A DNA stretch of 62,958 nt from Pseudomonadota bacterium (GTDB lineage: Bacteria > Desulfobacterota > QYQD01). Positions 9,582 to 25,851 of this stretch are shown here, one piece after another; position 1 is the first letter of the stretch, and each line of letters opens with the position of its first letter. Location: the NCBI GenBank assembly GCA_011046395.1, contig DSAQ01000150.1, forward strand, positions 1 through 62,958, written 5' to 3'. The position numbers were made by a program, and so were the translations under genes. The notes below the pieces were generated by a model. It saw only the letters and a program-made list of their open reading frames with translations. It was not told the origin of the DNA and made no database searches.

Positions 9582-10181
9582 TCATTTATGACACACAAAG
9601 CAGGCGTTGCTTGTACCCTTTTGGGCGTGACAATCCTCACACGCTTCCATGGACATGGTATTCTTGCTATAGCCGGATATTCTATAGACCTTTACCGGAG
9701 GACTGCTGCTGGATTTGCTCATATCCTCATGGCATGTTGTGCATTCCAGTTGAGCCATCTTGACATGGGCGGCATGGGAAAAGAAGACACACAATGGCTG
9801 ATAGGAATAACTAAGCCACGGTATCTCCTTGTTGGGCGTAATATATTGTTCGACCAGCTTGGCCTCATCCGGACTCTCACCCTGCGCTGATTCATGGCAC
9901 TGGATACAGTTATCCAGTTTGGGGATGCCGGCAAAGCTGCCATCTTCACGAAATGTATGGCAACCGTCACAGGCTAACCCCGCTCCTTCTGCACCGTGTG
10001 CCTTATGATTGAAGTTAATGGGTTGAGGCTTCGAAGACATGACAATAGCCGGATAAAGAAGCCAGCCAACCACAATGGCTACTACAAAACCAGCAGCCAG
10101 CATACCTAACCCCCCGCTGGCCTGCTTGTGTCCCCCTTCTCTTCCTCCCGTCGGTACGTGCTCTTCAGACATCTCGGTCAA
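9582..10181 (-). CDS. qrcA: Membrane-anchored multihaem cytochrome c (QrcA-like)
   Basis: One N-terminal hydrophobic anchor and five CxxCH motifs (CDGCH, CIQCH, CTTCH, CEDCH, CFVCH). The track start is TTG at 10181. An ATG at 10172 with a GGGGGAGG RBS is more likely. Confidence 0.75.
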   Translation of the reverse strand: MTEMSEEHVPTGGREGGHKQASGGLGMLAAGFVVAIVVGWLLYPAIVMSSKPQPINFNHKAHGAEGAGLACDGCHTFREDGSFAGIPKLDNCIQCHESAQGESPDEAKLVEQYITPNKEIPWLSYSYQPLCVFFSHAAHVKMAQLECTTCHEDMSKSSSSPPVKVYRISGYSKNTMSMEACEDCHAQKGTSNACFVCHK

Positions 10182-10271
10182 GCCTCCCCCTTATACCTTT
10201 AGCTGCGACTCTTTTATAACCATCATTTATATTTGTCAAGCGAAATTTGAATGAGGCTTCATTTCGTAACC

Positions 10272-11714
10272 TCATAAAATAGCCAGCAATTTTTCATGGA
10301 TATTGTCAAAACCGCCGTTGGACATAATGGCAATGACATCCCCTCCCCTGGCATGTTCCTTCAAAAATCCTAATATGCCGTCTGTGTCAGGAAAATAATA
10401 GGCGGTCCGGCCCCGTGTTTTTAAATCTTCAACCAGGGTCCTGGAAGAGAAGCGATCCTGGATCGGGATATTTTCCAGACCCGGCGGTTCACGCACAATT
10501 ACAGAATCAGCCGCATCAAATGAATGGGCATAATCATCCTGAAATACCTTGCGACGGCTGGAATTGGTTCGTGGTTCAAAAACCGCTATCAAACGCCTCC
10601 CTGTATAAGCAGCCCTGAGGGCCAGAAGGGTCTCGTGCACGGCAGTAGGGTGGTGGGCAAAATCGTCGATAACCGTGACATCATTCTTTATACCCCTTAC
10701 CTCCTGCCGGCGGCATACCCCCTGGAAGGAAGACAGGCCGGCCTGAATCGCCTCTGGCGAAAAACCTATCCTATCCAAAACCGCTATGACCGCCAGAGTA
10801 TTCAGGGCATTGTGCCTGCCTATAAGCGGACTGGTGAAGTGGGCATAAAATCCGCCCTCTTTTTTAACGGAAAACCTCGCCCCTTTTCCTTCAGTCAGAC
10901 AATCTGCCAAGGTCCATGGCAACCCTTTGTCTTCACCGTATCCGATAACCGGGCAGGAGGCATCCTTAATAACCTCTCTTACTATCCCGTCCTCCGTATG
11001 CGCCACCAAAGCGCCTGATGAGGGGATAATCTGAACAAAACGCCGAAAGGCATCCCTTACCTCCGCCAGATCCCGATAGATATCGGCATGATCGAACTCC
11101 ACACTGGTCAGTATGGCTATATGGGGCTGGTAGTGCAGGAACTTGGGCCCCTTATCAAAAAAGGCCGTATCATATTCATCGCCTTCTATTACAAAATAAG
11201 GACCCTGGCCCAGTTTATAGTTGCGCCCAAACCCCTTAACGATACCCCCGATCATGAAACCCGGGTCCGACCCGGCATGTTCCAGTATGGCGGCCAAAAG
11301 GGAAGCCGTAGTGGTTTTTCCATGTGTACCGGCCACCACCAGCGGAGTCCTTTCTCTTAAGAAAAAGTATTTTAACGCCTGGGGAAAAGAGACAAAAGGG
11401 ATATTTTTTTCGGCCAGGCCGCGTACCTCTTCATTTTCGCGGCGGATTACGTTGCCGACAATGACCAGGTCCGGATGGTGATTTATGTTATCAGGGCTAT
11501 AGCCCTGAAAGATTCTGATATCGAGCGAGGCCAGAAAAGTGCTCATAGGTGGATAGACCTGGGTATCGGAACCGGTGACCTGAAGACCTTTTTCCTTAAG
11601 CATCCCGGCCAAAGCGCCCATGCCTGTCCCACAGATACCCATAAGATGTACACTGCACACCTTTTCAGGCACCTTATTTAAGCGCATATCTAAGTCGAAC
11701 ATAATCCCTTCCAA
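10272..11714 (-). CDS. mpl: UDP-N-acetylmuramate:L-alanyl-gamma-D-glutamyl-meso-DAP ligase (murein peptide ligase)
   Basis: 480 aa. 'HLMGICGTGMGALAGMLKEKGLQVTGSDTQVYPPMSTFL' is the Mpl-type N-terminus, and the Mur ligase ATP site 'GTHGKTTT' is present. Confidence 0.85.
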   Translation of the reverse strand: MEGIMFDLDMRLNKVPEKVCSVHLMGICGTGMGALAGMLKEKGLQVTGSDTQVYPPMSTFLASLDIRIFQGYSPDNINHHPDLVIVGNVIRRENEEVRGLAEKNIPFVSFPQALKYFFLRERTPLVVAGTHGKTTTASLLAAILEHAGSDPGFMIGGIVKGFGRNYKLGQGPYFVIEGDEYDTAFFDKGPKFLHYQPHIAILTSVEFDHADIYRDLAEVRDAFRRFVQIIPSSGALVAHTEDGIVREVIKDASCPVIGYGEDKGLPWTLADCLTEGKGARFSVKKEGGFYAHFTSPLIGRHNALNTLAVIAVLDRIGFSPEAIQAGLSSFQGVCRRQEVRGIKNDVTVIDDFAHHPTAVHETLLALRAAYTGRRLIAVFEPRTNSSRRKVFQDDYAHSFDAADSVIVREPPGLENIPIQDRFSSRTLVEDLKTRGRTAYYFPDTDGILGFLKEHARGGDVIAIMSNGGFDNIHEKLLAIL

Positions 11715-13682: not shown

Positions 13683-13707
13683 TATATAATTACCCTTAAC
13701 AGTTCGC

Positions 13708-13765
13708 CCTATCCCTCAGGTATTCTCTCAACATCCGCCTCATCGAGCGGTTCGTCCACGGCGTT
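13708..13765. repeat. 58-bp direct repeat, copy A (left edge of island / 3' end of the 70-aa ORF)
   Basis: CCTATCCCTCAGGTAT[T]CTCTCAA[C]ATC[C]GCCTCATCGAGCGGTTCGTCCACGGCGTT matches 15309-15366 at 55 of 58 positions by manual alignment. Confidence 0.85.
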
Positions 13766-13921
13766 ACGCAGCCATGATGGATCGAACCCGGCAGCCGATG
13801 AGCCCTCGATGCGGATTCGCACCATAGCCCCATCGGACTTGTCCGCCAGGTTCACAATGGCCGGTAATGCCTTGAAGACCTGCTCTCTGGTGGCTTTGGA
13901 GTTGGAAACATAGAGGCGCAT
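13709..13921 (-). CDS. Small hypothetical protein (70 aa), possibly a gene fragment
   Basis: GC-rich ORF of island-like composition with a G-rich stretch just upstream of the ATG. Its last 19 codons lie in repeat copy A. No motif recognised. Confidence 0.35.
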   Translation of the reverse strand: MRLYVSNSKATREQVFKALPAIVNLADKSDGAMVRIRIEGSSAAGFDPSWLRNAVDEPLDEADVERIPEG

Positions 13922-14026: not shown

Positions 14027-15142
14027 TTACACAACGCTTTTCCCCTCCACCAAATTGATCAGACCTGGAAATGCCATCAGAGCGGGACGTCTGCCTTTGC
14101 CCTTTTCCAACACCTTGAGTATGTCCGCTTCCCCGAGTTTTCTCAGGATCAGCATGGTAGTCGGCCGTGTCGGAATCTTTGCAAGCTGTTGGAACTGAGT
14201 GCTGCGAAAGATTGGTTGTGAGAATATGGCATCCAAAACCTGGATGGCGTATTGAGAATGGGTGAGGGTCACTATCTTGTCTTTCAATCTTCCGTAAAGG
14301 TCTATTATTGCCCTGACCGTTTTCGTGTTGTGTTCCGCCTGCTCTATCAATGCCGAAAGAAAAAACGCAATCCATCCATTCCAGTCTCCGTTTTCGGTAA
14401 TCGCCCTCAACCGTCCGTAATAGACATCACGATGTTCCTCCAGGTAGGCGCTCATGTAGAAAATGGGGCTTGAGAGCAGGCCCCTAGCATACAGGAACAG
14501 GGGGATCAACATCCGCCCCAGCCTGCCGTTGCCATCAAGGAATGGATGGATGATTTCAAATTGCGCCTTGACCACTGCAAGCTGAACAAGCTGATCCTTC
14601 TCGTCGAAATGCAGGTACTTCTCCCAGTTATCCAGAGCCGACGGCAGCTTATCGGGTGACGGTGGTACAAAAGTTGCTTCTTCCATGGAGCAGCCCGCCG
14701 GCCCGATGTAGTTTTGAATCTTTCGGAATTCGCCCGGCGCCTTGTTTCTACCTCGGACACTTTCAAGAAGGATGGCGTGCAGCTCCTTGATCAGATTCAG
14801 ACAGAGGGGGAGCTTCTTAAGATTTTCTACCGCTGCTGCCATGGCCCGACGGTAGTTGATTATCTCCTGGATGTCCGCTTGCTTTTCCGGGGTTATCTCT
14901 TTTTGTAAGGGCGCGGCCTCATATTCCAGCACCTCTTCCATACTGGCCTGGGTGCCCTCGATGCGGGAAGAAAGCACAGCCTCTTGGGTGGTCAAAGGCG
15001 AAAGCAGCACTGCCGGGTTGACCACCCCTTGGAGCATGCCGTCATACCTGGCCAGGGCGGCGTTCGCCTGTCCGATCAGGGAAACATGGGCGGCCCAGTC
15101 AACACGGTCGAGGGGCAGGCTGTCCGGTGTAAAGGGTTTCAT
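14027..15142 (-). CDS. Fic family protein (AMPylase-type, with N-terminal autoinhibitory helix and C-terminal wHTH-like region)
   Basis: Catalytic motif 'HPFLDGNGRLGRML' (HxFx[DE]GNGRxxR). An upstream inhibitory-type motif 'SSRIEG' ([ST]xxxE[GN]) is also present. 371 aa, with a GAGGAGG RBS. Confidence 0.9.
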   Translation of the reverse strand: MKPFTPDSLPLDRVDWAAHVSLIGQANAALARYDGMLQGVVNPAVLLSPLTTQEAVLSSRIEGTQASMEEVLEYEAAPLQKEITPEKQADIQEIINYRRAMAAAVENLKKLPLCLNLIKELHAILLESVRGRNKAPGEFRKIQNYIGPAGCSMEEATFVPPSPDKLPSALDNWEKYLHFDEKDQLVQLAVVKAQFEIIHPFLDGNGRLGRMLIPLFLYARGLLSSPIFYMSAYLEEHRDVYYGRLRAITENGDWNGWIAFFLSALIEQAEHNTKTVRAIIDLYGRLKDKIVTLTHSQYAIQVLDAIFSQPIFRSTQFQQLAKIPTRPTTMLILRKLGEADILKVLEKGKGRRPALMAFPGLINLVEGKSVV

Positions 15143-15243: not shown

Positions 15244-15308
15244 CTCTCGTTTCGTGCCTTTCGTGTGTTTCGTAGCCTCTTCATAAGTCCTCACCCCTAA
15301 CAGATTAT

Positions 15309-15366
15309 CCTATCCCTCAGGTATCCTCTCAATATCTGCCTCATCGAGCGGTTCGTCCACGGCGTT
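15309..15366. repeat. 58-bp direct repeat, copy B (spans the res stop codon)
   Basis: See copy A. Here the repeat supplies the last 8 codons plus stop of res (QRRGRTAR*), in a different reading frame from the one used in copy A (NAVDEPLDEADVERIPEG*). Confidence 0.85.
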
Positions 15367-18172
15367 GCAGAATATCCCGTATCTCGCCCGGCGCTTTCGC
15401 CACCGCACAACGCCAGCGTCCGAAACCTCCATGTTCGTTCACGGCCTGGGTCCATTCGTCTAGGTAGCGCCGCTTGACCTGATCCTGTTCGGTGTCCTGT
15501 CCTTTGGTTTCCAGAACCAGCATATCGCCCGTTTTGAGGCGCATCATAAAATCGGGCCGATATTTGCGCACCACGCCGCGATAAACATAGAGCACCTCAA
15601 ATCCCAGATGGTCGTTCTTGACCCAAGCTGTCACCACGCCGCTTTCTTCCAGCGCAAAGGCATCCGACGCCTCCCACGTGCTGTCATAGACACACACGTT
15701 GATGTGCGACTTGCGGGTGCGCTCGCACGGCTTGCCGGTGTACCAGGTGCGCATCGCGCCGGTAGAACGAATGGGGTGGTCTCGGTCGAAGACCGGAGTG
15801 AGCCGTTCCGTGTTTTCTTGCCGCACCGCCTCCCAGACGTGCTGCACCACCCGTGACATATTGAGGGTGATGATCAGCCGACGGCGCAGCTCATCCTGAT
15901 AAAACAGCGGCGGGAAAATGGCGATCTTGTCGGAGCGGATGAACTCCTCCACGATGCGCACCAACTGGGCCAGCAAGACCTCGCGGCTGCCCTGCCAGGC
16001 GTGCTTCATCTGGTCGAACACGTCGCGCGCCGTCTCGAAAATGATGCGCTGGGTGCGGAACTCGCGTGCCAGCCGCTCCAACTCGATGCGGTTGATCTTG
16101 GTCACGTCCGGCTTGCCTTCCAGAACCGGGGCCAGTTCGGCCACCTGAGCCGTTTGGGAGGCATCGAGTTCGAGCCGACGCACCTTGTCCCAATCCAGCG
16201 TTAAGGTCGGCTGAAAAACGCGGTCAATGCGCAGCACGTTGGGCCAGCGGATTTCAAATTCGGCTTTCGCCGGGTCAGGTTCGACGGCGGTCTTGGGGGT
16301 CGGGGGTGGAGGCGGGCCATCCTGCCCGCCTTCGTGCGGCAAAAAGGTGAAGGGCACACCAAAGATGTTGACGTACTCCGGCTCGAACAGCCCCGTTTCG
16401 GGATTGATCTCGTAAGATGTGCGCCGCAGGCCGCGCCCCACCACCTGCTCACACAACAACTGGCTGGTGAAGGCCCTCAACCCCATGATGTGTGTCACCG
16501 TCTTGGCGTCCCAGCCCTCGGAGAGCATCCCCACCGAGATGACCTTCTGGATTTTCTCGCCCGGCTGCCCGGCCTTGCCCACCGTGTCCACCGTCCGGCG
16601 CAGCAGTTCGGCCTGTTCGGCTTTGGTCAGCTTGCGCTCCGCTGGCGCTTCGGCTTCCTCGGTCTCAGCGTCCGCTTCCGCCGTCTCCAGCGGTGCAACC
16701 GGCTCCTCCTGCGCTTCCGCCTGGTCGAGCACCTTCGAGTCAATGTGCAGGATACGCTCCGGGTCGCACAGTTCGTCAATATGGATGCGCCGGGAGTCAA
16801 AGGCGTGTTTGACCCGGGCCGCCGTCTCGGTGCGATTGCAGACGGTGATCATCACCGGCGGGGTGGGCAGATTGGCTTCATTCCATGCCTTCCACGCCTC
16901 GCGCCAGTCGTAGCTCAGCAGGTAGTAGGCGTTCAGCGCCAGGTCGGGCAGCGGCTCTTCCGGTTCGGCCTTGCGGTTCAGGTCGTCTTTTACGTCCGGA
17001 TCGTTGTAGATGTGGTAGAGGCGCGATTTGTAGGTCTTGGCGTCCGGCACGGCGTCGTCGCGCACCACCACGCGCGGGGTCTTGACCAAGCCCGACTCGA
17101 TGGCGTCGTTCAGCCCAAAATCGCTGACGATCCATCCGAAGAGCGCCTCCTCGCTGCTCTTCTTGCCCGACGGGGTGAAGGGCGTGGCGGAAAAGTCGTA
17201 ACAGGTGAGGATGCCCCGCGAGCGGTGCAGGCGATCCAGCCCGCCGATCCACACCGTCGCTTCCTCAGCGCTGTCTTTCATATCCCGGCTGCGCAGGTAT
17301 TTGCCTTCCGCTTCCCAGTTGACCCGCCAGGCGTGGTGCGCCTCGTCGTTGATGACCAGCAGGTTGCGGGCATTGGCCATCTCGCCCAGCACCTCGCGGG
17401 TGTAGGCTTCGTCGCTCTTGACGCCGCGCTTGTCCACGCTGCGCCGTTTCTTGACCTGCTCTTCGCTGTCCCAGGCCAGGGTATGCCAGTTGCGCACGAG
17501 CACCTTGCCCTGCCGCAGTTTGTCCAGCAGGGCCGAGGGCACGATGTTGAACGCCTCGTAATAGTTCCCCGCCGCAGCCGGTTCCAGCACCGCCAGCCTG
17601 CTCTTCACCGTCAGCCCCGGCGCCATTACCAGAACATTCTTGGAAAAACGGGCGTCCCGCGGATAAGCCACCTTGTTGAGGATATGCCAGGTTATCACCA
17701 TCGCCATCACGATGGTCTTGCCGGAGCCGGTAGCCATCTTGCAGCACTGGCGCAGAAAAGCCCCGCCGTCGCCGGGAATCTCGATGCCCACGCGCTCGAC
17801 GGCGGGCGCTTCCAGCAACCAGATCAGCGTCTCCACCGCCTCCAACTGGCAGAAGAAAAAGCGCCGTGCCTCGAACTCTTCCGGGTCGCGCCAGTGTTCC
17901 AGCAGCCGCTTGGTGATGCTGCTTACGCCCGGATAGCCCGCTTCGCTCCACGCCTTGACGCGCGGGCGAATCTGATTGACCAGCGGGATTTCCACAAAGA
18001 TGCCGGGGTCGTCGAAGGCCCTGGAATCGCCCGAGGCCACCACATACCCTGCCGGGCGGCGACCCTCCACGAGGTCGAACAGCCGCGTCTCGCGCTCGTA
18101 GCGCCAGTGGCGTTCCGGCTCCGCGTAGGGCGAGTTGACAATCAGGCGGTCAATGGTCGTCTGCGCCATCAA
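15341..18172 (-). CDS. res: Type III restriction enzyme Res subunit (SF2 helicase + PD-(D/E)xK nuclease)
   Basis: 943 aa. Helicase motif I 'ATGSGKT', motif II 'VINDEAHHAW', and a C-terminal nuclease motif 'YRPDFMMRL...LVLETKG'. The ATG at 18169 overlaps the mod stop (TGATG). Confidence 0.85.
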   Translation of the reverse strand: MMAQTTIDRLIVNSPYAEPERHWRYERETRLFDLVEGRRPAGYVVASGDSRAFDDPGIFVEIPLVNQIRPRVKAWSEAGYPGVSSITKRLLEHWRDPEEFEARRFFFCQLEAVETLIWLLEAPAVERVGIEIPGDGGAFLRQCCKMATGSGKTIVMAMVITWHILNKVAYPRDARFSKNVLVMAPGLTVKSRLAVLEPAAAGNYYEAFNIVPSALLDKLRQGKVLVRNWHTLAWDSEEQVKKRRSVDKRGVKSDEAYTREVLGEMANARNLLVINDEAHHAWRVNWEAEGKYLRSRDMKDSAEEATVWIGGLDRLHRSRGILTCYDFSATPFTPSGKKSSEEALFGWIVSDFGLNDAIESGLVKTPRVVVRDDAVPDAKTYKSRLYHIYNDPDVKDDLNRKAEPEEPLPDLALNAYYLLSYDWREAWKAWNEANLPTPPVMITVCNRTETAARVKHAFDSRRIHIDELCDPERILHIDSKVLDQAEAQEEPVAPLETAEADAETEEAEAPAERKLTKAEQAELLRRTVDTVGKAGQPGEKIQKVISVGMLSEGWDAKTVTHIMGLRAFTSQLLCEQVVGRGLRRTSYEINPETGLFEPEYVNIFGVPFTFLPHEGGQDGPPPPPTPKTAVEPDPAKAEFEIRWPNVLRIDRVFQPTLTLDWDKVRRLELDASQTAQVAELAPVLEGKPDVTKINRIELERLAREFRTQRIIFETARDVFDQMKHAWQGSREVLLAQLVRIVEEFIRSDKIAIFPPLFYQDELRRRLIITLNMSRVVQHVWEAVRQENTERLTPVFDRDHPIRSTGAMRTWYTGKPCERTRKSHINVCVYDSTWEASDAFALEESGVVTAWVKNDHLGFEVLYVYRGVVRKYRPDFMMRLKTGDMLVLETKGQDTEQDQVKRRYLDEWTQAVNEHGGFGRWRCAVAKAPGEIRDILQRRGRTAR

Positions 18173-20712
18173 TCCACCTCCACGATCTTCAAACTCTCGA
18201 TGCCCCGGTCATCCACAATCTTGACGGCGATGCGCCGGTGCTCACCCGCCGCAAAGGGCAGCGACACCGTGCCGCGGTAGGCTTCGATCAAACCCTCGTC
18301 GATCTCGGCCTTGAGGTTATTCGCCAGCTTTGCCCAGCCCTCCTTCTCCCCGGCCTGAGGGAAGAAGACTTGGCGCGGATACAGGCTGCGCCCATCGTAG
18401 TCGGTGTCCAGCAGCCAGACGGCGATCTGTCCCGGGCCGCCTGATTCGACGCCGCCGGTCTTGGTGTTGTAATAGTCGAAACCCTCGACGCTGACCCGCC
18501 ACTTGCCCTTGTCTTCGCCTTTGGCAATGCGCTCCAGCCGCACATCCGGCTGGCCGATGAGCCAGAAGGATTCGTTGCTGGCGCGCTTTTTCTTCAGGTC
18601 GTCGGTCAGGAGATCGGCGTTCATCTGCGCCTTGAGCAGGGTCACGCCCGGCCAGTTGGTCTCGTCAATGTCCTTGGCCGCTTCCGGGTCGAACTGAAAG
18701 GCGACAAAGACGATCAGCTTGGGCTTGGGCACGAGGGTTTGCGCCTCCTCGATAGCCTGGGCCACCTGGCGCTGTTCCAGCGGGGCATGCTCCGGGCCGA
18801 AGGAAACGACAATGCGCTGGGGAGCATAGGCTGTGCCTGCCTCGCGCACCCGGTCTGCGCCCTCGGCGCTGGGGCGGGTTTCGCCGTCGGCGTGCAGCCA
18901 GCGCGTGCCGGGAAGCGGTTCCAGCCGGGCGAAGCGGATATGCTGGCCCGCCTTGCCGCGAATCCCGGCCCGCAGTAGTTCGTCGCGCCATTCGCCCTGA
19001 CGCAAGGTCTCGCCGGAGCGGGCGATGGAGGCGTCGGCGACTTGCGGCGCCCCTTCCAGCAGTTCCTCCACCGACTTGACCGCCGGGGCGGGCACGGCCT
19101 CGACCGTGAACGGGCCGCTGACGCGGTGTTTCTTGCGATCCACCAGCGGCTGGTCGTAGAGCGTCTCCGTGGCTGGCGGCTCGTTGTTGGCAATGGATTT
19201 GAGGGTGACGTGCGGCACGGTCTTGTATTTGAAGCCGCTGCCCACGCCTTCCTGCGGGTGGGCCAGCTCGTAGTAGTCGAAGACGGCGGTCATCAGCCGC
19301 TGTTTGGCCAGCGTGAGCGCCACGCGCGAGGTGTCGCAGGTGATCCAGCGCCGCCCCCACTGCTCGGCAACATAGGCGGTGGTGCCGCTGCCACAGGTGG
19401 GGTCGAAGACCAGGTCGCCCGGGTCGGTACTCATCAGGAGGCAGCGTTGTATAACGAATTCCGACGTTTCAACTATGAAAATTCGTTTCATGGGGCCTGA
19501 TGTATCAACCCAAAAATTTGTTAATTTTTGGTAAGGAAAATCTCTATTGTATAATTTGTAAGAAAGGGTTTTTCCCTCTAACTTTATTCTATCTAACTGA
19601 ATCAACCTTTCCAGTTTTTCTTTTGAGACAATCCATGATTGTCCTTTGCTTAATGCGAATTCTTTTCCTTTATAAGTAACAGAATAATCAAGTTCAGGAG
19701 AGTAACCTGGTGCTCGTAAAGAAACTAACCGATACCACTCTTTTTCTTCCGAATCGTATACCCATCTGGATTTTCCATCAGGCATATAATCTTGATAAAG
19801 ATTTCGATATTTAAGCATTTCTATGTTTTTTGAATAAGAAATAAGATAATCATTCATGCTATCTAAATATTTTGCACCAAGAGGCATTGTCTTTTTTCTA
19901 AATGGAATCAAACTGACAAAGTTCCACACCCCAAACACCTCATCCATCAACTCGCGCACGTGATGCACATTCTCGTCGCTGATCTGGACGAAGACGCTGC
20001 CGCTCTCGGTGAGCAGTTCGCGGGCCAGCAGCAGGCGGTCGCGCAGGTAGGTCAGGTAGGAGTGGATGCCCAGTTCCCAGGTGTCGCGGAAGGCGCGGAT
20101 CTGCTCCGGCTCGGCGGTCAGGTCCTCGTCCTTGCCGTCCTTGACGTCGCGCTTGTTCACGAAGGGCTGGAAGTTCGAGCCATACTTGATGCCATAAGGC
20201 GGGTCGATGTAGATCATTTGCACCTTGCCCGCCATGCCTTCCTTTTCCAGCAGGGAGTTCATCACCAGCAGACTGTCGCCCGCTATCAGGCGGTTGCTCC
20301 ACCCGTGGGGGTGCCGGTAGAACTCGACCGCCTCCCTCAGGGGCGGGTTCTCTTTCGGCGTGGCGAAGAGGGGAAGCTGTTGTTCCGCACCGCTGCCGTT
20401 GCGCTTGCGCACCGCCTCGATGATGGTGCGCGGGTCAATGCGCTCGTGGACGTGGAGCGAGACGGTGGGCACCTCGAAGGAGGTGTTCTCGGCCTTGCCC
20501 GCCCATTGCAACTGAGGGTCCAAGTGAGGGTCGTAGGCGTAGGTCTTCCGCTGCCCGGCGTCCGGGTCGGTGTCGGGCGTCACCAGGCCGACGGGCGGGT
20601 TGTTGACCCGTTTTTTGTCGGTGTGCTCGTAAGACGCAATCGGGCGTTTAGGATCGGCCTTCTTTTTCCTTACCATAGCTTCCTGCCTCATCAAAGATAG
20701 TTTATTATCCAA
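18169..20712 (-). CDS. mod: Type III-like N6-adenine DNA methyltransferase Mod (beta class) with long C-terminal extension
   Basis: 'IYIDPPYGIKYGSNF' (motif IV) precedes 'VFDPTCGSGTT' (motif I), which is the beta-class order. 847 aa. The track start is TTG at 20712. An ATG at 20676 (MVRKKK..., AGGA RBS) is more likely. Confidence 0.85.
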   Translation of the reverse strand: MDNKLSLMRQEAMVRKKKADPKRPIASYEHTDKKRVNNPPVGLVTPDTDPDAGQRKTYAYDPHLDPQLQWAGKAENTSFEVPTVSLHVHERIDPRTIIEAVRKRNGSGAEQQLPLFATPKENPPLREAVEFYRHPHGWSNRLIAGDSLLVMNSLLEKEGMAGKVQMIYIDPPYGIKYGSNFQPFVNKRDVKDGKDEDLTAEPEQIRAFRDTWELGIHSYLTYLRDRLLLARELLTESGSVFVQISDENVHHVRELMDEVFGVWNFVSLIPFRKKTMPLGAKYLDSMNDYLISYSKNIEMLKYRNLYQDYMPDGKSRWVYDSEEKEWYRLVSLRAPGYSPELDYSVTYKGKEFALSKGQSWIVSKEKLERLIQLDRIKLEGKTLSYKLYNRDFPYQKLTNFWVDTSGPMKRIFIVETSEFVIQRCLLMSTDPGDLVFDPTCGSGTTAYVAEQWGRRWITCDTSRVALTLAKQRLMTAVFDYYELAHPQEGVGSGFKYKTVPHVTLKSIANNEPPATETLYDQPLVDRKKHRVSGPFTVEAVPAPAVKSVEELLEGAPQVADASIARSGETLRQGEWRDELLRAGIRGKAGQHIRFARLEPLPGTRWLHADGETRPSAEGADRVREAGTAYAPQRIVVSFGPEHAPLEQRQVAQAIEEAQTLVPKPKLIVFVAFQFDPEAAKDIDETNWPGVTLLKAQMNADLLTDDLKKKRASNESFWLIGQPDVRLERIAKGEDKGKWRVSVEGFDYYNTKTGGVESGGPGQIAVWLLDTDYDGRSLYPRQVFFPQAGEKEGWAKLANNLKAEIDEGLIEAYRGTVSLPFAAGEHRRIAVKIVDDRGIESLKIVEVD

Positions 20713-21829
20713 CTGTGCCCCTTATGGACGGACTTCTCCCGGCTGGCTTTCGCGTAGCCTTCGCCTTCTTCTTGCTCTTTGGGGGCGTCCCTGGTTTCTT
20801 GCGCCGCGTCTCCAGCATCTTTGCGGAGGTCCGCAGGTCTTCCACGTACCGCGCCTCGGCCTGGGCTTCCGCTTCCAGCCGCCGCCTTTCTGCGAAGGCG
20901 TCGTATTGTCCCTGCGCCCATTCGAGCGCCTCGTCACGGCTGACCGTGCCGGGTCCGAAGAGCACGGGCAATTCGGTGTCGCGCAGGAACTTATCGAGAA
21001 ACCCTTCCCAGTCGCGCATACGAATATCCTGCCGCCGCTGGGCGCGGAACTCGGCTTGGTCGAGGAACATCACGGTGATCCGGTTGAGCGTGTCGATCTC
21101 CTTGGCGTCAAGATAGTTCTTCGCCGTTCCCACGTCGCGCTTGAGCACTCGGCCGCCCTTCCATGAAGTAAGTCCCATGTTGGCCTCGCCCGCGTCGGCC
21201 CGCCGGCAGACGATCTCCGCCGCCGTCATACCCGCAGCGGCGTAGTGCATCTTGTTCTGCATGGTCGCGAAGAAGACCTGCGTTTCTTCTTCCCCCTCCC
21301 GGTAGTCGCGGGCCAGCGCGAAGATCTCGCGAATCCGCTGATAGACCCGCGCCTCGCTGGCGCGAATTTCGCGGATGCGGGCAAGCAGTTCGTCGAAATA
21401 ATCCACCAGCCCTTTGCCGCCCTTGAGCCGCTCATCGTCCAGAGTAAATCCCTTGACGATATACTCCCGCAAGCGGGCCGTGGCCCACTGGCGGAACCGG
21501 GTGGCGACGGCGGATTTGACCCGGTAGCCGACCGCGATGATCATGTCTAAGTTGTAGTAATCGAGCAGCCGCCGAACCGTGCGTGGCCCCTCCGGGCGAA
21601 CTGTCAAGTATTTCTTGACGGTTGCCTCCGGGGCCAGTTCGCCTTCCTCAAAAATGTTTTGTATGTGAAGGCTTATGTTCTGCTTGGTGGTCTCATAAAG
21701 CTCGGCCATCAGGTTTTGCGTCAGCCAGACGGTCTCATCCTGAAGTCGCACCTCAAGCCGGGTCTCGCCGGAATCGGATTGATAAATCAGTATCTTGGTA
21801 TCATCCGGAATGGGTAGGTTTTCGGTCAT
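20705..21829 (-). CDS. rhuM: RhuM-family protein (R-M-associated 'guest' gene)
   Basis: 'IYQSDSGETRLEVRLQDETVWLTQNLMAELYETTKQNISLHIQNIFEEGEL' and 'VGYRVKSAVATRFRQWATARLREYIVKGFTLDDERLK' match the RhuM family as I remember it. The ATG overlaps the hsdM stop (ATGA). Confidence 0.8.
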   Translation of the reverse strand: MTENLPIPDDTKILIYQSDSGETRLEVRLQDETVWLTQNLMAELYETTKQNISLHIQNIFEEGELAPEATVKKYLTVRPEGPRTVRRLLDYYNLDMIIAVGYRVKSAVATRFRQWATARLREYIVKGFTLDDERLKGGKGLVDYFDELLARIREIRASEARVYQRIREIFALARDYREGEEETQVFFATMQNKMHYAAAGMTAAEIVCRRADAGEANMGLTSWKGGRVLKRDVGTAKNYLDAKEIDTLNRITVMFLDQAEFRAQRRQDIRMRDWEGFLDKFLRDTELPVLFGPGTVSRDEALEWAQGQYDAFAERRRLEAEAQAEARYVEDLRTSAKMLETRRKKPGTPPKSKKKAKATRKPAGRSPSIRGTVG

Positions 21830-23838
21830 TCCGTCACCTCCGCGAGCATGTCGGCGATTTCCTTCTCGATCTTTTTGAGATCGGCTTCAATCTCGTCCAG
21901 CGGTCTCGGCGGCGTGTACCTGTAAAAATACCGGTTAAATTTGATCTCATACCCGACCTTGGTTTTGGACTCGTCCACCCAGGCATCGGGCACGTGTGGT
22001 AGGACTTCCCGCTTCATGTACTCGTCCACGTCTTCTTTGAGCGGGACGTTCTCGAAGTCGCGCAGTTCGGGATCGGCTTCCGGGTTGCCCTTGGCGTCGG
22101 TGCACACGTCGGCCGTCTCGTCACGCTCGGCCAGGGCCATGAGGATCGTCTTAAACAAAGCGGAGGTAATCTTGAGGCCCGACTTCTTGAACGCCGCCTG
22201 CACCATCTCCGAGAACTGGTCGCGGTTCTTGACGATGCCCTTACCGGCAAGCGGCAGCAGGGCGGCCACGATGTCTTCTTGCTGCTTGCGGCCCTCTTCG
22301 ATCTCGGCCTGCGCGGCCTTTGTATCCTTTCGCTTCTTGCTGGCGGCGAGATTGGCGAAGGCCGTGGTTTCCTTGAGGCGGTTAATTCGAGGCTGGTCCA
22401 CCGCGAAGTTAAGCCGCAGGGGACGTTCCACGGTGATGCGGCGATAGCCGAAGTCCTCGTTATCGAAAATGCGGACATGATCCGCGTCTTTCAAATTCCC
22501 ATAGAGCCGGGTAATCTCGTCGCGCTGGTCATCGCAGACCTCGTTCCGCTTATTGCCGAGGGACTTGCGCATCTTTTTGAAGAAGGACGTTCCATCCACC
22601 AGTTGAATCTTGCCCTTGCGGCCCGGCTTCTTCCGGTTGGTGACGATCCAGAGGTAGGTGTAGATTCCGGTGTTGTAGAAGAGCTGGTCCGGTAGGGCGA
22701 CAATGGCCTCCAGCCAATCGTTTTCGATGATCCAGCGGCGGATTTCGCTCTCTCCCGACCCGGCCGCACCGGTGAACAGCGGCGAACCGTTGAAGACGAT
22801 TCCAAGTCGGGTGCCGCCCTCCTTCGGGTCCTTCATCTTGCTGATCATGTGCATGATAAAGAGAAGGGAGCCGTCATTGATGCGAGGCAGTCCCGCGCCG
22901 AAACGTCCTCCAAAACCCTGTTCTTCATGTTCGCGTGTGATGAAGTCGGCTTCCGGCTTCCACTCCACACCGAAGGGCGGATTGGCCAGCATGTAATCGA
23001 ACTTGTGACGAGGAAACCGGCCGTCGGTAAAGCTGTCGCCAAAGGCGATGTGCTCGATGTCCTGTCCCTTGATCATCATGTCCGAACCGCAGATGGCGTA
23101 AGCCTGGGCGTTGTAGTCCTGGCCGAAAACCTCCAGGCGGGCGTCGGGGTTGAGCTCGCGCACGTAGTCCTCGGCCACGGAGAGCATACCGCCCGTTCCG
23201 CAGGCCGGGTCATAGAGGGTCTTCACGATTCCCTTGGTGGTAAGGATGTCGCCATCCGGCATAAAGAGGAGGTTCACCATCAGGCGAATGACCTCACGGG
23301 GGGTGAAGTGATCTCCGGCCTCCTCGTTCGATGCCTCGTTGAATCTCCGGATCAGCTCCTCGAAGATGTAGCCCATCTCGATGTTCGAGACGACGTGCGG
23401 GTGGAGGTCAATATCGCAGAACTTGGACACGACTAGATAGAGCCGGTCGGCCTTGTCGATCTTGGCGATATGTTCCTCGAATCCGAAGTGCTCGATGATC
23501 TCTCGTGCCCGCGTGGAGAATCCCTTGATGTAGTTGGTCAGATTTGCGGCGATGTTGTCCGGATCGCCTTTGAGCTTTTCGAAGGTGTAACGGCTTGTGT
23601 TGTAGAAAGGCACACCTGTGACGCGGCAGAGAATGGAATCGACCTTCTTGACCTTGCCGCCCGAAAGTTTCTTCTGCTGTTCGAGAACCTTGTCTTTGGT
23701 AGGCTCCAGGACGCAGTCGAGGCGGCGAAGAACGGTCAGGGGGAGCATGATGTCCTTGTACTGGTTTGGCCGGTAGGGTCCGCGAATGAGGTCGGCAACC
23801 GACCAAATGAAGCTGACTTTTTCGCCGAAGTTATTCAT
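21826..23838 (-). CDS. hsdM: Type I restriction-modification methyltransferase subunit HsdM (no adjacent hsdS/hsdR)
   Basis: HsdM_N-like 'FIWSVADLIRGPYRPNQYKDIMLPLTVLRRLDCVL', AdoMet motif 'DPACGTGGML', catalytic 'LANPPFGVEW', and a C-terminal 'VGYEIKFNRYFYRY' tail. Confidence 0.9.
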   Translation of the reverse strand: MNNFGEKVSFIWSVADLIRGPYRPNQYKDIMLPLTVLRRLDCVLEPTKDKVLEQQKKLSGGKVKKVDSILCRVTGVPFYNTSRYTFEKLKGDPDNIAANLTNYIKGFSTRAREIIEHFGFEEHIAKIDKADRLYLVVSKFCDIDLHPHVVSNIEMGYIFEELIRRFNEASNEEAGDHFTPREVIRLMVNLLFMPDGDILTTKGIVKTLYDPACGTGGMLSVAEDYVRELNPDARLEVFGQDYNAQAYAICGSDMMIKGQDIEHIAFGDSFTDGRFPRHKFDYMLANPPFGVEWKPEADFITREHEEQGFGGRFGAGLPRINDGSLLFIMHMISKMKDPKEGGTRLGIVFNGSPLFTGAAGSGESEIRRWIIENDWLEAIVALPDQLFYNTGIYTYLWIVTNRKKPGRKGKIQLVDGTSFFKKMRKSLGNKRNEVCDDQRDEITRLYGNLKDADHVRIFDNEDFGYRRITVERPLRLNFAVDQPRINRLKETTAFANLAASKKRKDTKAAQAEIEEGRKQQEDIVAALLPLAGKGIVKNRDQFSEMVQAAFKKSGLKITSALFKTILMALAERDETADVCTDAKGNPEADPELRDFENVPLKEDVDEYMKREVLPHVPDAWVDESKTKVGYEIKFNRYFYRYTPPRPLDEIEADLKKIEKEIADMLAEVTE

Positions 23839-24173
23839 GACTGCTCCTGATCCTGACCCTGGCTCAGGGCCTGCTGCTTGCCGTGACGACGGCGGCGGCG
23901 CAAGCAGTTCGCCTGGATCGGCAGTAAATATTCTATCAATCTACGGTCGTTAGACATTCGTTTCTCGCTATCCCTCATCGTCCTTGGCCCCTTTGTCCCC
24001 TTTATGTCCCCTTTTGTCATCGGGGTGACATGTCCCGTTTGTCGGGTTTTTATCGGGTTGCCGTGAGCCCCCTGAGGGGCTGACTGGCGCATTTGGCGCA
24101 TTTCTGGCGCGATTAAGAAATGTGCTCATTGTCTCCCAATGAGGCGTTTGATGCGTTTGTGATGCGTTTATAT

Positions 24174-25646
24174 TCATGAGTCCTTTGAGTCCTTTGTGAT
24201 GCGTTTCCTCATGAGTATATAATGAGTGCCCTTGCCTGTGATTCCAACTTTCTTCAGAATTTTCTTGGTGAATAGATCGTCGAGATCCCGCGTCGCAGTA
24301 GCCCTCGAAACACCGAATAACTTCTGATATTCGGAGTTGGAGATGCGACCATTTTTCTTAACATGAGTCAGAGCCTGAATCTGCCGCTCATTCAGCTTGT
24401 ACCCGGCCAGCACCTTCGGCGTCAGCCAGTCCCGCCAGACCGTGCTTGTAAACTCTCCGCCTCGTTGAACGAAATCAGGCTCAGGAAGGGCATGGGCAAG
24501 GCTCTCCCGGATCATCATGAGAGTGCCGGTACCGTATTTCTCGATATAGCGGGCGAGAAAGAGAGCCTCGCATATACGGAAGTTGCGGGCTATGGAGCCA
24601 TGGGGCAGGCGCAGACTTTCAGGGGTGAGCGGCGAAACCAGCGTGCCGGGGTTCCATACTTCCACGCGGTCTGCAAAGACGGAAACCTGCACGGCTCCGG
24701 CCGAGGTATAGTCTCGGTGGGCAATGGCGTTGACAATAGCCTCACGGATCACATCAGGTGGTATTTCATAACGAACAGGGGCCTGAGTGCTTTCGGACCG
24801 GGTGCCTACACTTCTATTAAGCTTTGACATGACAAAGTCCACTGCCATATCCACCTGCTCAAAGAGGGTGCCCTTGAAGATGCGGTAAAAGGGGACAGGG
24901 CGTTGAATCTCGGTGCCGTGGAAATGCATACAGCGCACTTCGGAGGCCGGAAGGAAACGCTGAGGGTCCCGGCCAAAAAGGAGTATGGCGGCGTTGCTTG
25001 GATGATCACCACAAAGAAGATGCAGGTGTGCAAGCACATCAGCCACGGGGGTCTTGATCGGAAGCGGAAACTGGCGCTCAAGCCTGGCAAGACGCACAAA
25101 ATCCGTGACGGCTTGCTCGTCCATATCGCCGAGGGTTGCATCTGCGCAGGTTCTTTCTTCGAAGGGACGGTTTTGAATTGTGCCGCACACTTCAAGATAA
25201 TCCACAAGGCTTGAATAGAGTGCCTCGATCAACTCGGAAATACTGCCAAACCTTTTTCGGATAAGCTGTCGGCCGACCTTTGCGATCAGCGCACGCATCT
25301 TTGGATGACGACCGGCATCTTCTTTGCCCTTGACGAAAACAAGACGTACCTTGCCGTGAGCAGTAGCAAGGTCAAACTCGCGCTCTGTAGGGGAGATACT
25401 CTTGGCATCCTCTGATCCATACTCATTTCCAAACAGGCCTACGTATGCATCGCACTCTTCGACCTCTTTCAGATACACATCGTCCGCTTTGCGGTCACTG
25501 GCAGGCAGGTCTTCAAACAGAAATACGTCAAAGAAACGCCGGAGCAAGGGATCATTCTGCACAAACTCCTTGATGGCACGCCGTTCTGCTTGCAGTTCCT
25601 TCTGGACGCTGCTGATGAAGATTCTTTTCCGGTGCGCCGCCATCAC
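24174..25646 (-). CDS. DUF4062-like N-terminal domain fused to an AlbA_2/Schlafen-like, HATPase_c_4-like and wHTH protein
   Basis: N-terminus 'IFISSVQKELQAERRAIKEFV...VFLFEDLPA...AYVGLFGNEYG' resembles DUF4062. The middle 'AILLFGRDPQRFLP...VRCMHFHG' and 'REAIVNAIAHRDY...RNFRICEALFLARYIEKYGTG' resemble the RecG-like 'putative DNA-binding/ATP-binding' family. The C-terminal 'NERQIQALTHVKKNGRISNSEYQKLFGVSRATATRDLDDL' is a wHTH. Confidence 0.65.
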   Translation of the reverse strand: MMAAHRKRIFISSVQKELQAERRAIKEFVQNDPLLRRFFDVFLFEDLPASDRKADDVYLKEVEECDAYVGLFGNEYGSEDAKSISPTEREFDLATAHGKVRLVFVKGKEDAGRHPKMRALIAKVGRQLIRKRFGSISELIEALYSSLVDYLEVCGTIQNRPFEERTCADATLGDMDEQAVTDFVRLARLERQFPLPIKTPVADVLAHLHLLCGDHPSNAAILLFGRDPQRFLPASEVRCMHFHGTEIQRPVPFYRIFKGTLFEQVDMAVDFVMSKLNRSVGTRSESTQAPVRYEIPPDVIREAIVNAIAHRDYTSAGAVQVSVFADRVEVWNPGTLVSPLTPESLRLPHGSIARNFRICEALFLARYIEKYGTGTLMMIRESLAHALPEPDFVQRGGEFTSTVWRDWLTPKVLAGYKLNERQIQALTHVKKNGRISNSEYQKLFGVSRATATRDLDDLFTKKILKKVGITGKGTHYILMRKRITKDSKDS

Positions 25647-25851
25647 GAAAAGCCTCCTTCAAGACGAGCCGCTTGCTGTACTGCATCTGCCGGAATTTGG
25701 TAGAACCTCGCCGCCACGATCCCTGCCTGCGCCGGGGCTCGCGACGCGGCAGGCAGGCTAGTTGTAGGAATCACTGCCTACGAATGCCAACGAAACCAGT
25801 GAGAAGTATATTTAAGCGGACCAGTCCCGTCAAGGACAAAAGCCTTGAGCT

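Follow-up and report, generated by a model that had tools for sequence, protein, structure and literature searches.

According to the main texts of three preprints, domains of the DUF4062 family were shown to act as NADases in defence only in 2026, each described system coupling the domain to a different sensor. These systems comprise KpSwz (Swarozyc), an anti-phage protein whose TIR-like DUF4062 NADase is described together with TEP1 (Osinski et al. 2026, bioRxiv 10.64898/2026.05.01.722283; PDB 10wc, 11cq, 11cv), Evangelion (Ibarra-Chavez et al. 2026, bioRxiv 10.64898/2026.06.25.731849), and Avs2, Vulcan and Vesta, in which the domain is termed NIR (Le Mouellic et al. 2026, bioRxiv 10.64898/2026.09.04.749371). 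KpSwz, PsAvs2, Vulcan, VstA and Eva01 are reported in those texts to deplete NAD+ and to need a catalytic glutamate for it (E97, E108, E98, E103 and E87, respectively) (Osinski et al. 2026; Le Mouellic et al. 2026; Ibarra-Chavez et al. 2026). A second group, the “Schlatpases”, is built on a supradomain of SLFN_AlbA_2 and the GHKL domain PF13749 and, according to the text of the preprint that named it, carries a C-terminal helix-turn-helix (HTH) in more than 90% of its members (Kuzmenko et al. 2026, bioRxiv 10.64898/2026.05.29.728809); our literature search returned the name from that preprint alone. Here we describe a gene on the minus strand of contig DSAQ01000150.1, of which a stretch of 62,958 nt (hereafter the window) was analyzed, whose product joins a DUF4062 head to a GHKL ATPase and a winged HTH (wHTH), and we compare it with these systems and with its own relatives.

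The open reading frame (ORF) is a real gene: a database entry (P0002) is identical to the window protein, and comparison with a 90% identical orthologue (locus L001, positions 9998-11470) gave a dN/dS of 0.127. The coordinates assigned to it in an earlier annotation made from the DNA letters (the original prediction) hold exactly, with the gene on the minus strand, and the peptides quoted there are found in the translation. An alternative start codon, the ATG at 25643, would give a protein of 489 aa, and residue positions in our AF2 model are numbered from this ATG. The features of the gene and its surroundings are collected in Table 1.

Table 1. Coordinates, in the window, of the DUF4062-GHKL-wHTH gene, its predicted domains and nearby signals.
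Feature	Positions	Strand	Basis and remarks
Whole gene	24174..25646	minus	490 aa from GTG at 25646; stop codon included
DUF4062 (NIR/TIR-like) head, residues 1-155	25182..25646	minus	Pfam, KpSwz profile match, fold
Glu90 codon, predicted catalytic Glu, motif S-P-T-E-R-E-F	25377..25379	minus	Alignment to KpSwz E97A site
GHKL (Bergerat-type) ATPase, residues 158-406	24429..25175	minus	PF13749 and 3lmm superposition
Winged helix-turn-helix, residues 409-481	24204..24422	minus	Weak Pfam matches and modelled secondary structure
Shine-Dalgarno-like AGGAGG	25653..25658	minus	6 nt before GTG, 9 nt before ATG; read from sequence
Promoter-like site TTGACG-17 nt-TATACT	25805..25833	minus	About 160 nt upstream of start codon; 10/12 consensus matches, consensus match only
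Terminator-like hairpin	24125..24143	minus	30 nt past stop codon; pattern only; within the stretch conserved in L001

The head of the protein is assigned by both sequence and fold. Pfam DUF4062 (PF13271) matched residues 8-94 over its full profile, 1-82 (E 5.7e-23; 81.4 bits vs a cut-off of 24.7), and a profile of 63 relatives, compared with PDB chains, recovered the DUF4062 domain of KpSwz (10wc_A; E 1.9e-14; positions 2-161 to chain residues 4-168). The family motif S-P-T-E-x-E-[FY] aligned on S-F-T-E-K-A-F of 10wc_A, and E90 fell on the Ala that the deposited E97A chain of KpSwz carries (by residue count chain position 84, with the chain starting near residue 14). This position is Glu in all 63 aligned family members, and E17, R22, E45, G73 and S85 are likewise invariant. 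In the AF2 model the head forms a five-stranded beta/alpha core (strands 6-10, 38-41, 66-71, 99-105 and 129-132, with helices between them) and a long helix at 135-153. Structure comparison of model residues 4-159 yielded DNPH1 (Z 13.6), the TIR domain of SPARTA (13.5), MilB (13.4) and the TIR domain of SARM1 (13.3), with a root-mean-square deviation (rmsd) of 2.5-3.1 over 127-134 aligned residues; differences in Z of less than 1 count as ties, and the structure library, which ends in April 2026, does not contain the KpSwz structures. Nucleoside 2'-deoxyribosyltransferases were matched by Foldseek (E 2.7e-5). The original prediction of a DUF4062-like N-terminus, TIR- or nucleoside-deoxyribosyltransferase-like in character, is thus borne out, and its suggestion that the head may process NAD is backed, by analogy and at the level of the family, by the main texts of the 2026 preprints. 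Short proteins that match the head alone at E<=0.001 numbered 949 (60-78% identity among the 120 listed), most of them on short contigs, and the ones from long contigs could represent split or frameshifted copies.

Beyond the head, HATPase_c_4 (PF13749), also named in the original prediction, matched residues 318-402 (E 8.3e-18; 64.6 bits vs a cut-off of 26) but spans only the last third of the GHKL domain. In the AF2 model, built from 63 relatives (pLDDT 90.2, pTM 0.72), residues 158-405 superposed on residues 173-408 of DIP2311 (3lmm_A; Z 24.6, rmsd 3.1, 230 aligned), and because the whole stretch does so we assign it to a single GHKL domain. Within it, E302-x3-N306 and G372-x-G374 are invariant in 63 of 63 members. 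The PADLOC pAgo model PDLC02394 matched residues 162-395 with its positions 177-426 of 1121, a range that agrees with the boundaries given for RzAgo, whose Schlafen domain comprises residues 1-142 and whose Schlafen-ATPase unit comprises residues 1-442 (main text of Kuzmenko et al. 2026). A second PADLOC model, Aga_SIR2-PNTD1-PNTD2 (SIR2-containing, Argonaute-associated), matched residues 206-342 (E 1.9e-16), and NCBIfam made no specific addition for the window protein. In RzAgo, according to the same text, gamma-phosphate and Mg are bound by E314 and N318, and tetramerisation is driven when the PF13749 domain binds ATP (Kuzmenko et al. 2026); we liken E302 and N306 to this pair by motif and by the range of the PADLOC pAgo profile, not by residue-level alignment.

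Between head and HATPase_c_4 the original prediction had also placed an AlbA_2/Schlafen-like domain, and this domain is absent. SLFN_AlbA_2 (PF04326) had no match in the whole protein at E<=0.01, residues 151-320 searched alone matched no Pfam family at E<=1, and the candidate region (residues 150-320), which belongs to the GHKL fold, was rejected on these grounds. Two relatives, P0178 and P0228, do carry SLFN_AlbA_2, at residues 9-113 and 25-129, and their alignment with the window protein starts at residue 128 of the former, against its residues 156-486, and at residue 133 of the latter, against its residues 145-477. Because these proteins align only past their Schlafen domains, the DUF4062 domain occupies the slot of the Schlafen nuclease in the “Schlatpase”-HTH family, replacing that domain rather than being added to it.

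A C-terminal wHTH, as had been proposed, is indicated by weak Pfam matches at residues 418-478 (DIP2311-like_C, 25.1 bits vs a cut-off of 27, E 2.1e-5; HTH_DeoR, E 0.001; MarR), by weak ArsR-like matches, and by a winged-helix pattern at 419-477 of the AF2 model, in which helices 419-431, 436-443 and 447-459 and strands 463-466 and 474-477 make up three helices and a hairpin. The winged helix is the most variable part of the family: its mean all-pairs identity is 20%, whereas the head reaches 42% and the GHKL domain 43%. The C-terminus also differs in kind among relatives, which carry DIP2311-like_C or Fic-like_C winged helices, Ig-like inserts or DUF4357.

The DUF4062-GHKL-wHTH combination, described as an unusual fusion in the original prediction, is common and, as judged from sequence databases, widespread. 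Both PF13271 and PF13749 were present in all 120 best matches from a 90%-identity database (71-100% identity). A 50%-identity library held 13941 representatives at E<=0.001 and 736 at E<=1e-30; among the best 150, head and body were both present in 105, 41 had no room for a head, and four had another N-terminal region (a Schlafen head in two, an unknown head in one, and a 2918-aa multi-unit protein). The family thus comprises at least 105 clusters at 50% identity among these best 150 representatives, from many bacterial phyla and one contig of an ANME-2 archaeal metagenome-assembled genome. Multi-unit forms include that 2918-aa protein (P0123), with several Schlafen/GHKL/HTH units, P0162, an 897-aa fusion of a weak TIR_2-like head and GHKL to DUF4062, GHKL and HTH, and P0196, an 884-aa tandem of two DUF4062-GHKL units; their composition hints that differently headed units may work together. 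An unknown head is found on P0255. Matches among phage records (30) covered the body only, with less than 33% identity among the ten listed, and none covered 80% of the query. Plasmid records covering at least 80% of the protein numbered 13, all of them Legionella plasmids (50-55% identity), and on one of these, that of Legionella anisa (NZ_CP082853.1), a lone gene annotated “ATP-binding protein” adjoins parA/parB and rep. Seven of the 13 Legionella records split the annotation of the homologue into two pieces.

Heads have been exchanged repeatedly on the GHKL-winged-helix body. A tree of 72 GHKL sequences (63 DUF4062-headed members of the alignment, the window protein included, six Schlafen-headed and three unknown-headed) needs five changes of the DUF4062 label, and an approximately unbiased (AU) test, run without the two longest rows, rejected a tree in which the 63 DUF4062-headed bodies form a single clade (delta lnL 183, p 0.00015). 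The bodies of the Schlafen-headed P0228 and the DUF4062-headed P0190 are 65% identical and were paired at SH-aLRT 99, a pair flagged for odd composition; the bodies of P0178 and P0228 are 38-47% identical to that of the window protein. Since a single origin of the DUF4062-headed bodies was rejected and bodies 65% identical carry different heads, we regard the head as a swappable effector. Repeated exchange of NADase and Schlafen heads on near-identical bodies offers direct comparative evidence for this role of the head, and also points to the body as a general sensor and switch; because it does so, the function of the very large uncharacterised Schlafen-ATPase-HTH family becomes testable by a simple NAD+ read-out. 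We take the Schlatpase-HTH proteins to be COG2865.

On this evidence we consider it fairly probable that the window protein is a single-protein device of the abortive-infection type, in which an NADase head is joined to a GHKL switch for oligomerisation and to a variable sensor of winged-helix type. The DUF4062 (NIR/TIR-like) domain would be the effector, predicted by analogy with its family to break down NAD+ by hydrolysis into ADP-ribose plus nicotinamide. The GHKL ATPase would be the switch, its ATP-bound oligomerisation either bringing the heads into an active arrangement or freeing them from autoinhibition, and the variable C-terminal winged helix may sense an infection cue, whether a phage protein or a nucleic acid; a defence phenotype would be expected to follow. 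We derive the protein from the “Schlatpase”-HTH scaffold (Schlafen nuclease, GHKL and HTH), on which an NADase head has taken over from the nuclease. Family members are often found, co-oriented and tightly spaced, inside methylation-based defence operons, and they also occur alone.

Comparison with the described systems shows that the window protein, a member of the DUF4062 family, is neither a Schlatpase as defined nor a Swarozyc, and combines parts of both. KpSwz likewise is encoded by a single gene and has an N-terminal DUF4062 TIR-like NADase head with the same catalytic Glu; in both proteins a helix follows the head and the C-terminal domain is of winged-helix type. It is, however, a chain of 326 residues without an ATPase, whereas about 248 residues of GHKL separate head and winged helix in the window protein; in Swarozyc the head is joined through a helical stalk directly to the winged-helix AUX domain, a layout that the window protein does not share. 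The C-terminal domains of the two have no detected sequence similarity, and the trigger of KpSwz, whose winged-helix AUX domain binds it according to the main text, is the phage portal (Osinski et al. 2026). With the Schlatpase-HTH proteins, RzAgo and 3lmm the window protein shares the GHKL and winged-helix body, the E-x3-N ATP/Mg motif and the habit of residing in restriction-modification (R-M) loci, but it lacks the defining Schlafen nuclease (E-x4-(D/E)-x-K and SAFAN motifs), carrying DUF4062 instead, and has no Argonaute part. Because DUF4062 replaces this nuclease, the predicted output is NAD+ depletion rather than tRNA cleavage.

PsAvs2, Vulcan, Vesta and Evangelion have in common with the window protein the effector family, the catalytic Glu, a constant NADase head on a variable sensor and an enrichment among defence genes. 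They differ in what the head is coupled to, namely a STAND NTPase and TPR (Avs2), HEAT repeats (Vulcan), a small domain and a phosphatase gene (Vesta) or a short AUX (Evangelion), and the main texts describe a GHKL ATPase in none of them (Le Mouellic et al. 2026; Ibarra-Chavez et al. 2026); the GHKL ATPase with a winged helix would thus be a further coupling for the DUF4062 head. Partners of short pAgo proteins in SPARTA and SPARSA (TIR-APAZ and SIR2-APAZ) are similar in fusing an NADase head to a sensor-coupling body, as the match to the SPARTA TIR domain reflects, and different in that the window protein has neither an APAZ domain nor an Argonaute partner gene. The main texts of the DUF4062-NADase preprints make no mention of DUF4062, GHKL and winged helix combined, although their figures and supplements may draw it, and within the main texts of all four preprints, that on the Schlatpases included, the remark of the original prediction that no characterised example is known holds for this exact architecture. 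The text of the Schlatpase preprint does not contain the term TIR, and its census is limited to Schlafen-containing proteins (Kuzmenko et al. 2026).

We examined the neighborhoods of relatives in 80 loci on one-genome-per-species contigs. Out of 150 confirmed relatives these were the 80 best (50-90% identity); they come from Thermodesulfobacteriota, Nitrospirota, Verrucomicrobiota, Planctomycetota, Actinomycetota, Bacteroidota and other groups, and in one case from an ANME-2 archaeal bin. Gene calling relied on a simple longest-ORF script, neighbors of at least 100 aa within two genes were scanned against PADLOC, and hits at E<=1e-25 were labelled by hand; a hit to DNA polymerase I was dropped as housekeeping, and the cluster of BPTD_3080-type Res proteins was labelled through NCBIfam on the window copy. 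Three loci (L012, L067 and L074) had no neighbor of at least 100 aa and were left out, giving 77 countable loci. A known defence or R-M component lay within two genes in 43 of these and directly adjacent in 34, on both sides in 21. By class, the loci comprised type III-like R-M (12), type I R-M (9), DUF1156-methylase/PLD-helicase (4), BREX (4), DpdE/DrmD with DrmMI (3), type IIG (3), AbiEi (3), SoFic (2), Hma (1) and other (2). All but one of the 47 directly adjacent defence genes shared the strand of the gene. Their gaps had a median of 23 bp; 24 measured 30 bp or less, and ten were 4-nt overlaps, values that depend on the choice of start codon. In L027 and L053 the gene has brxC on one side and pglX on the other (in L048, brxC lay further upstream); in L041 it is flanked by HmaA and HmaB, and in L006, L007, L028, L029 and L032 by Res and Mod. 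Locus L018 shows the gene order SNF2/DUF4062/DUF4391/Mod/Res.

Defence genes made up 77 of 260 genes in the near set, compared with six to eight of 108 genes sampled at a distance of 7 kb or more (Fisher p 9e-8 to 1.3e-6), and all clear defence genes in the far set belong to the same systems as the near ones. Homologues are accordingly enriched beside defence genes, and the description of these proteins as passengers of R-M loci in the original prediction stands. Among the 39 window genes outside the island, PADLOC matched five, all FtsH-like or sigma-54-activator AAA+ proteins. No conserved partner gene was found: neighbor clusters were small, the largest, BPTD_3080-type Res, being present in ten loci including the window. 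The possibility that the protein is a subunit of a type I or type III R-M system was rejected, as it matched no R-M family and its neighbors belong to at least seven system types or to none. A Schlafen-headed paralogue adjoins the DUF4062-headed gene in L037 and L046 and is present in the same locus in L066 and L069. In L037 (2946-4322) and L046 (8835-9815) this Schlafen-headed GHKL(-HTH) gene is directly upstream of the DUF4062-headed one, and in L037 the two are flanked by hsdS and hsdR from a type I system.

Tight embedding in operons of R-M, BREX and like systems raises the question whether these proteins work independently or serve as a backup to those systems. It is possible, but we think it unlikely, that the protein is a guard of methylation-based defence, silent while the neighboring R-M, BREX or DISARM-like system works and firing its NADase when a phage disables that system, triggered for example by a DNA-mimic anti-restriction protein bound by the winged-helix/GHKL body. 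PrrC with EcoprrI and PARIS with Ocr would be analogous arrangements. Occurrence inside operons of at least seven unrelated system types, positions between brxC/pglX, HmaA/HmaB and Res/Mod pairs, and the co-orientation and close spacing of adjacent defence genes all suit a guard. The partner systems differ, however, which makes a specific protein contact unlikely; 34 of the 77 loci lack such a neighbor, the Legionella gene stands alone beside partition genes on its plasmid, and the window gene has promoter-like and terminator-like signals of its own and is older than the adjacent R-M genes. Independent defence genes are, moreover, commonly embedded in the operons of other systems. The text of the Schlatpase preprint notes such embedding for SLFN-pAgos as well (Kuzmenko et al. 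2026). A broader proposal, which we likewise hold to be improbable, is that DUF4062-, Schlafen- and TIR-headed GHKL-wHTH proteins form one large class of interchangeable “fail-safe” modules in methylation-based operons (R-M, BREX, DISARM-like and Hma) that sense a disarmed host system, for instance when the winged helix captures a DNA-mimic anti-restriction protein; whichever head is carried would then be fired by ATP-driven oligomerisation. Were it true, the uncharacterised Schlatpase-HTH proteins, in their tens of thousands, would serve to guard restriction systems, and the NADase-headed branch would provide the easiest read-out for proof.

Two further readings concern what the head and the winged helix do. 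The head may instead act on nucleotides, as a DNPH1-, MilB- or deoxyribosyltransferase-like N-glycosidase that removes (modified) deoxynucleoside monophosphates (dNMPs) or nucleoside monophosphates (NMPs) and so depletes a phage-specific nucleotide pool. DNPH1, the CMP N-glycosidase MilB and the deoxyribosyltransferases match the head at or above the level of the TIR domains, and the DUF4062 head of Avs2 was itself first annotated as a CMP hydrolase, according to the main text (Le Mouellic et al. 2026). These Z scores are ties, the head is DUF4062 by sequence and matches KpSwz, and every DUF4062 protein tested in the 2026 preprints hydrolyzed or depleted NAD+ as far as their main texts report, so that we consider this reading quite improbable. 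Still less can be said for a transcription regulator whose winged helix binds an operator of the R-M neighbors while DUF4062 and GHKL only sense ligands (for instance NAD or ATP), a reading to which we give very little credence even though the database name is “predicted HTH transcriptional regulator”, the C-terminal winged helix has weak MarR, DeoR and ArsR-like matches, and the gene occupies an operonic position beside R-M genes. The catalytic Glu and five more head residues are invariant, as for an enzyme; the head has been exchanged with a Schlafen nuclease and a TIR-like domain, both effectors; the neighbors are too diverse for one operator; and the winged helix of KpSwz, in the main-text account, binds a protein (Osinski et al. 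2026). The abortive-infection-type device with an NADase head remains our preferred reading, and several points weigh against it. Fold alone cannot separate NADases from nucleotide N-glycosidases, with DNPH1, MilB and TIR within one Z unit, and 34 of the 77 loci lack a known defence gene within two genes. The neighborhood counts rest on a crude ORF caller and hand labels, with controls from the same loci; the group in the AU test was named after the FastTree tree had been inspected; adjacency to R-M genes in the window may reflect a hotspot rather than a functional link, the gene being unlike its R-M neighbors in its core-genome composition and synteny; and any member of the DUF4062-GHKL-wHTH architecture is known from sequence and model alone.

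Five genes beside the window gene on the same strand encode an HsdM-like methylase, RhuM, a type III-like Mod of 847 aa, a BPTD_3080-family Res (1166 bits in NCBIfam) and SoFic. The methylase is full-length (670 aa; PADLOC PDLC03029, 996 bits), and neither HsdS nor HsdR lies close to it; the island at 15341-23838 mixes this methylase with RhuM, Mod and Res. The gene has a GC content of 53%, like its flanks (about 52%), compared with 58-65% for the R-M core. Locus L001 shares the upstream housekeeping genes, and nucleotide synteny extends to 24081, 93 bp past the stop codon; L001 does not have the R-M genes of the window at the corresponding place, and beyond the synteny it carries a 500-aa paralogue of the body, paired type I HsdM and HsdS, and what is left of the N-terminus of Mod. 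Because of its flank-like GC content and this synteny, the gene is best read as the conserved edge of a variable defence hotspot, and not as part of the inserted R-M block. The original prediction, which put the gene at the head of the island, was right as to position only. No tRNA gene that might serve as an integration site of the island was found in the window. The 500-aa paralogue (L001 12703-14205, minus strand) shares 30% identity with residues 161-476 of the window protein; it matched no Pfam family at E<=0.001, the GHKL model included, and may carry yet another head.

Synonymous divergence from the L001 orthologue varies over the length of the gene, with a dS of 1.25 for the head and of 0.25-0.27 for the GHKL domain and winged helix, while dN/dS is low throughout; this pattern could reflect recombination inside the gene. 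Upstream of the gene, folding of the leader RNA (25647-25851) was indistinct from that of shuffled sequences (z-score -0.24), and a 38-nt palindromic stretch occurs once in the window. Two small ORFs on the 3' side (23835-24101, 88 aa; 23968-24177, 69 aa) were rejected as genes: neither matched a Pfam, NCBIfam or PADLOC family, the 88-aa product is of low complexity and basic, and conservation with L001 ends at 24081. A GCGTTTG-rich motif of about 31 nt is present three times at 24084-24206, across the last codons of the gene and the spacer that follows. About 85 nt of the 3' end and terminator (24136-24220) and of the upstream region (25680-25764) recur in the L001 island at 78-81% identity, at 14213-14292 and 15847-15931, one copy being just before another gene. 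Elsewhere in the window, a direct repeat of 74 nt (89% identical; 13692-13765 and 15293-15366) brackets the SoFic gene (14027-15142), with one copy overlapping the 3' end of Res and the other a small ORF (13709-13921); it looks like a duplication from insertion of the Fic cassette.

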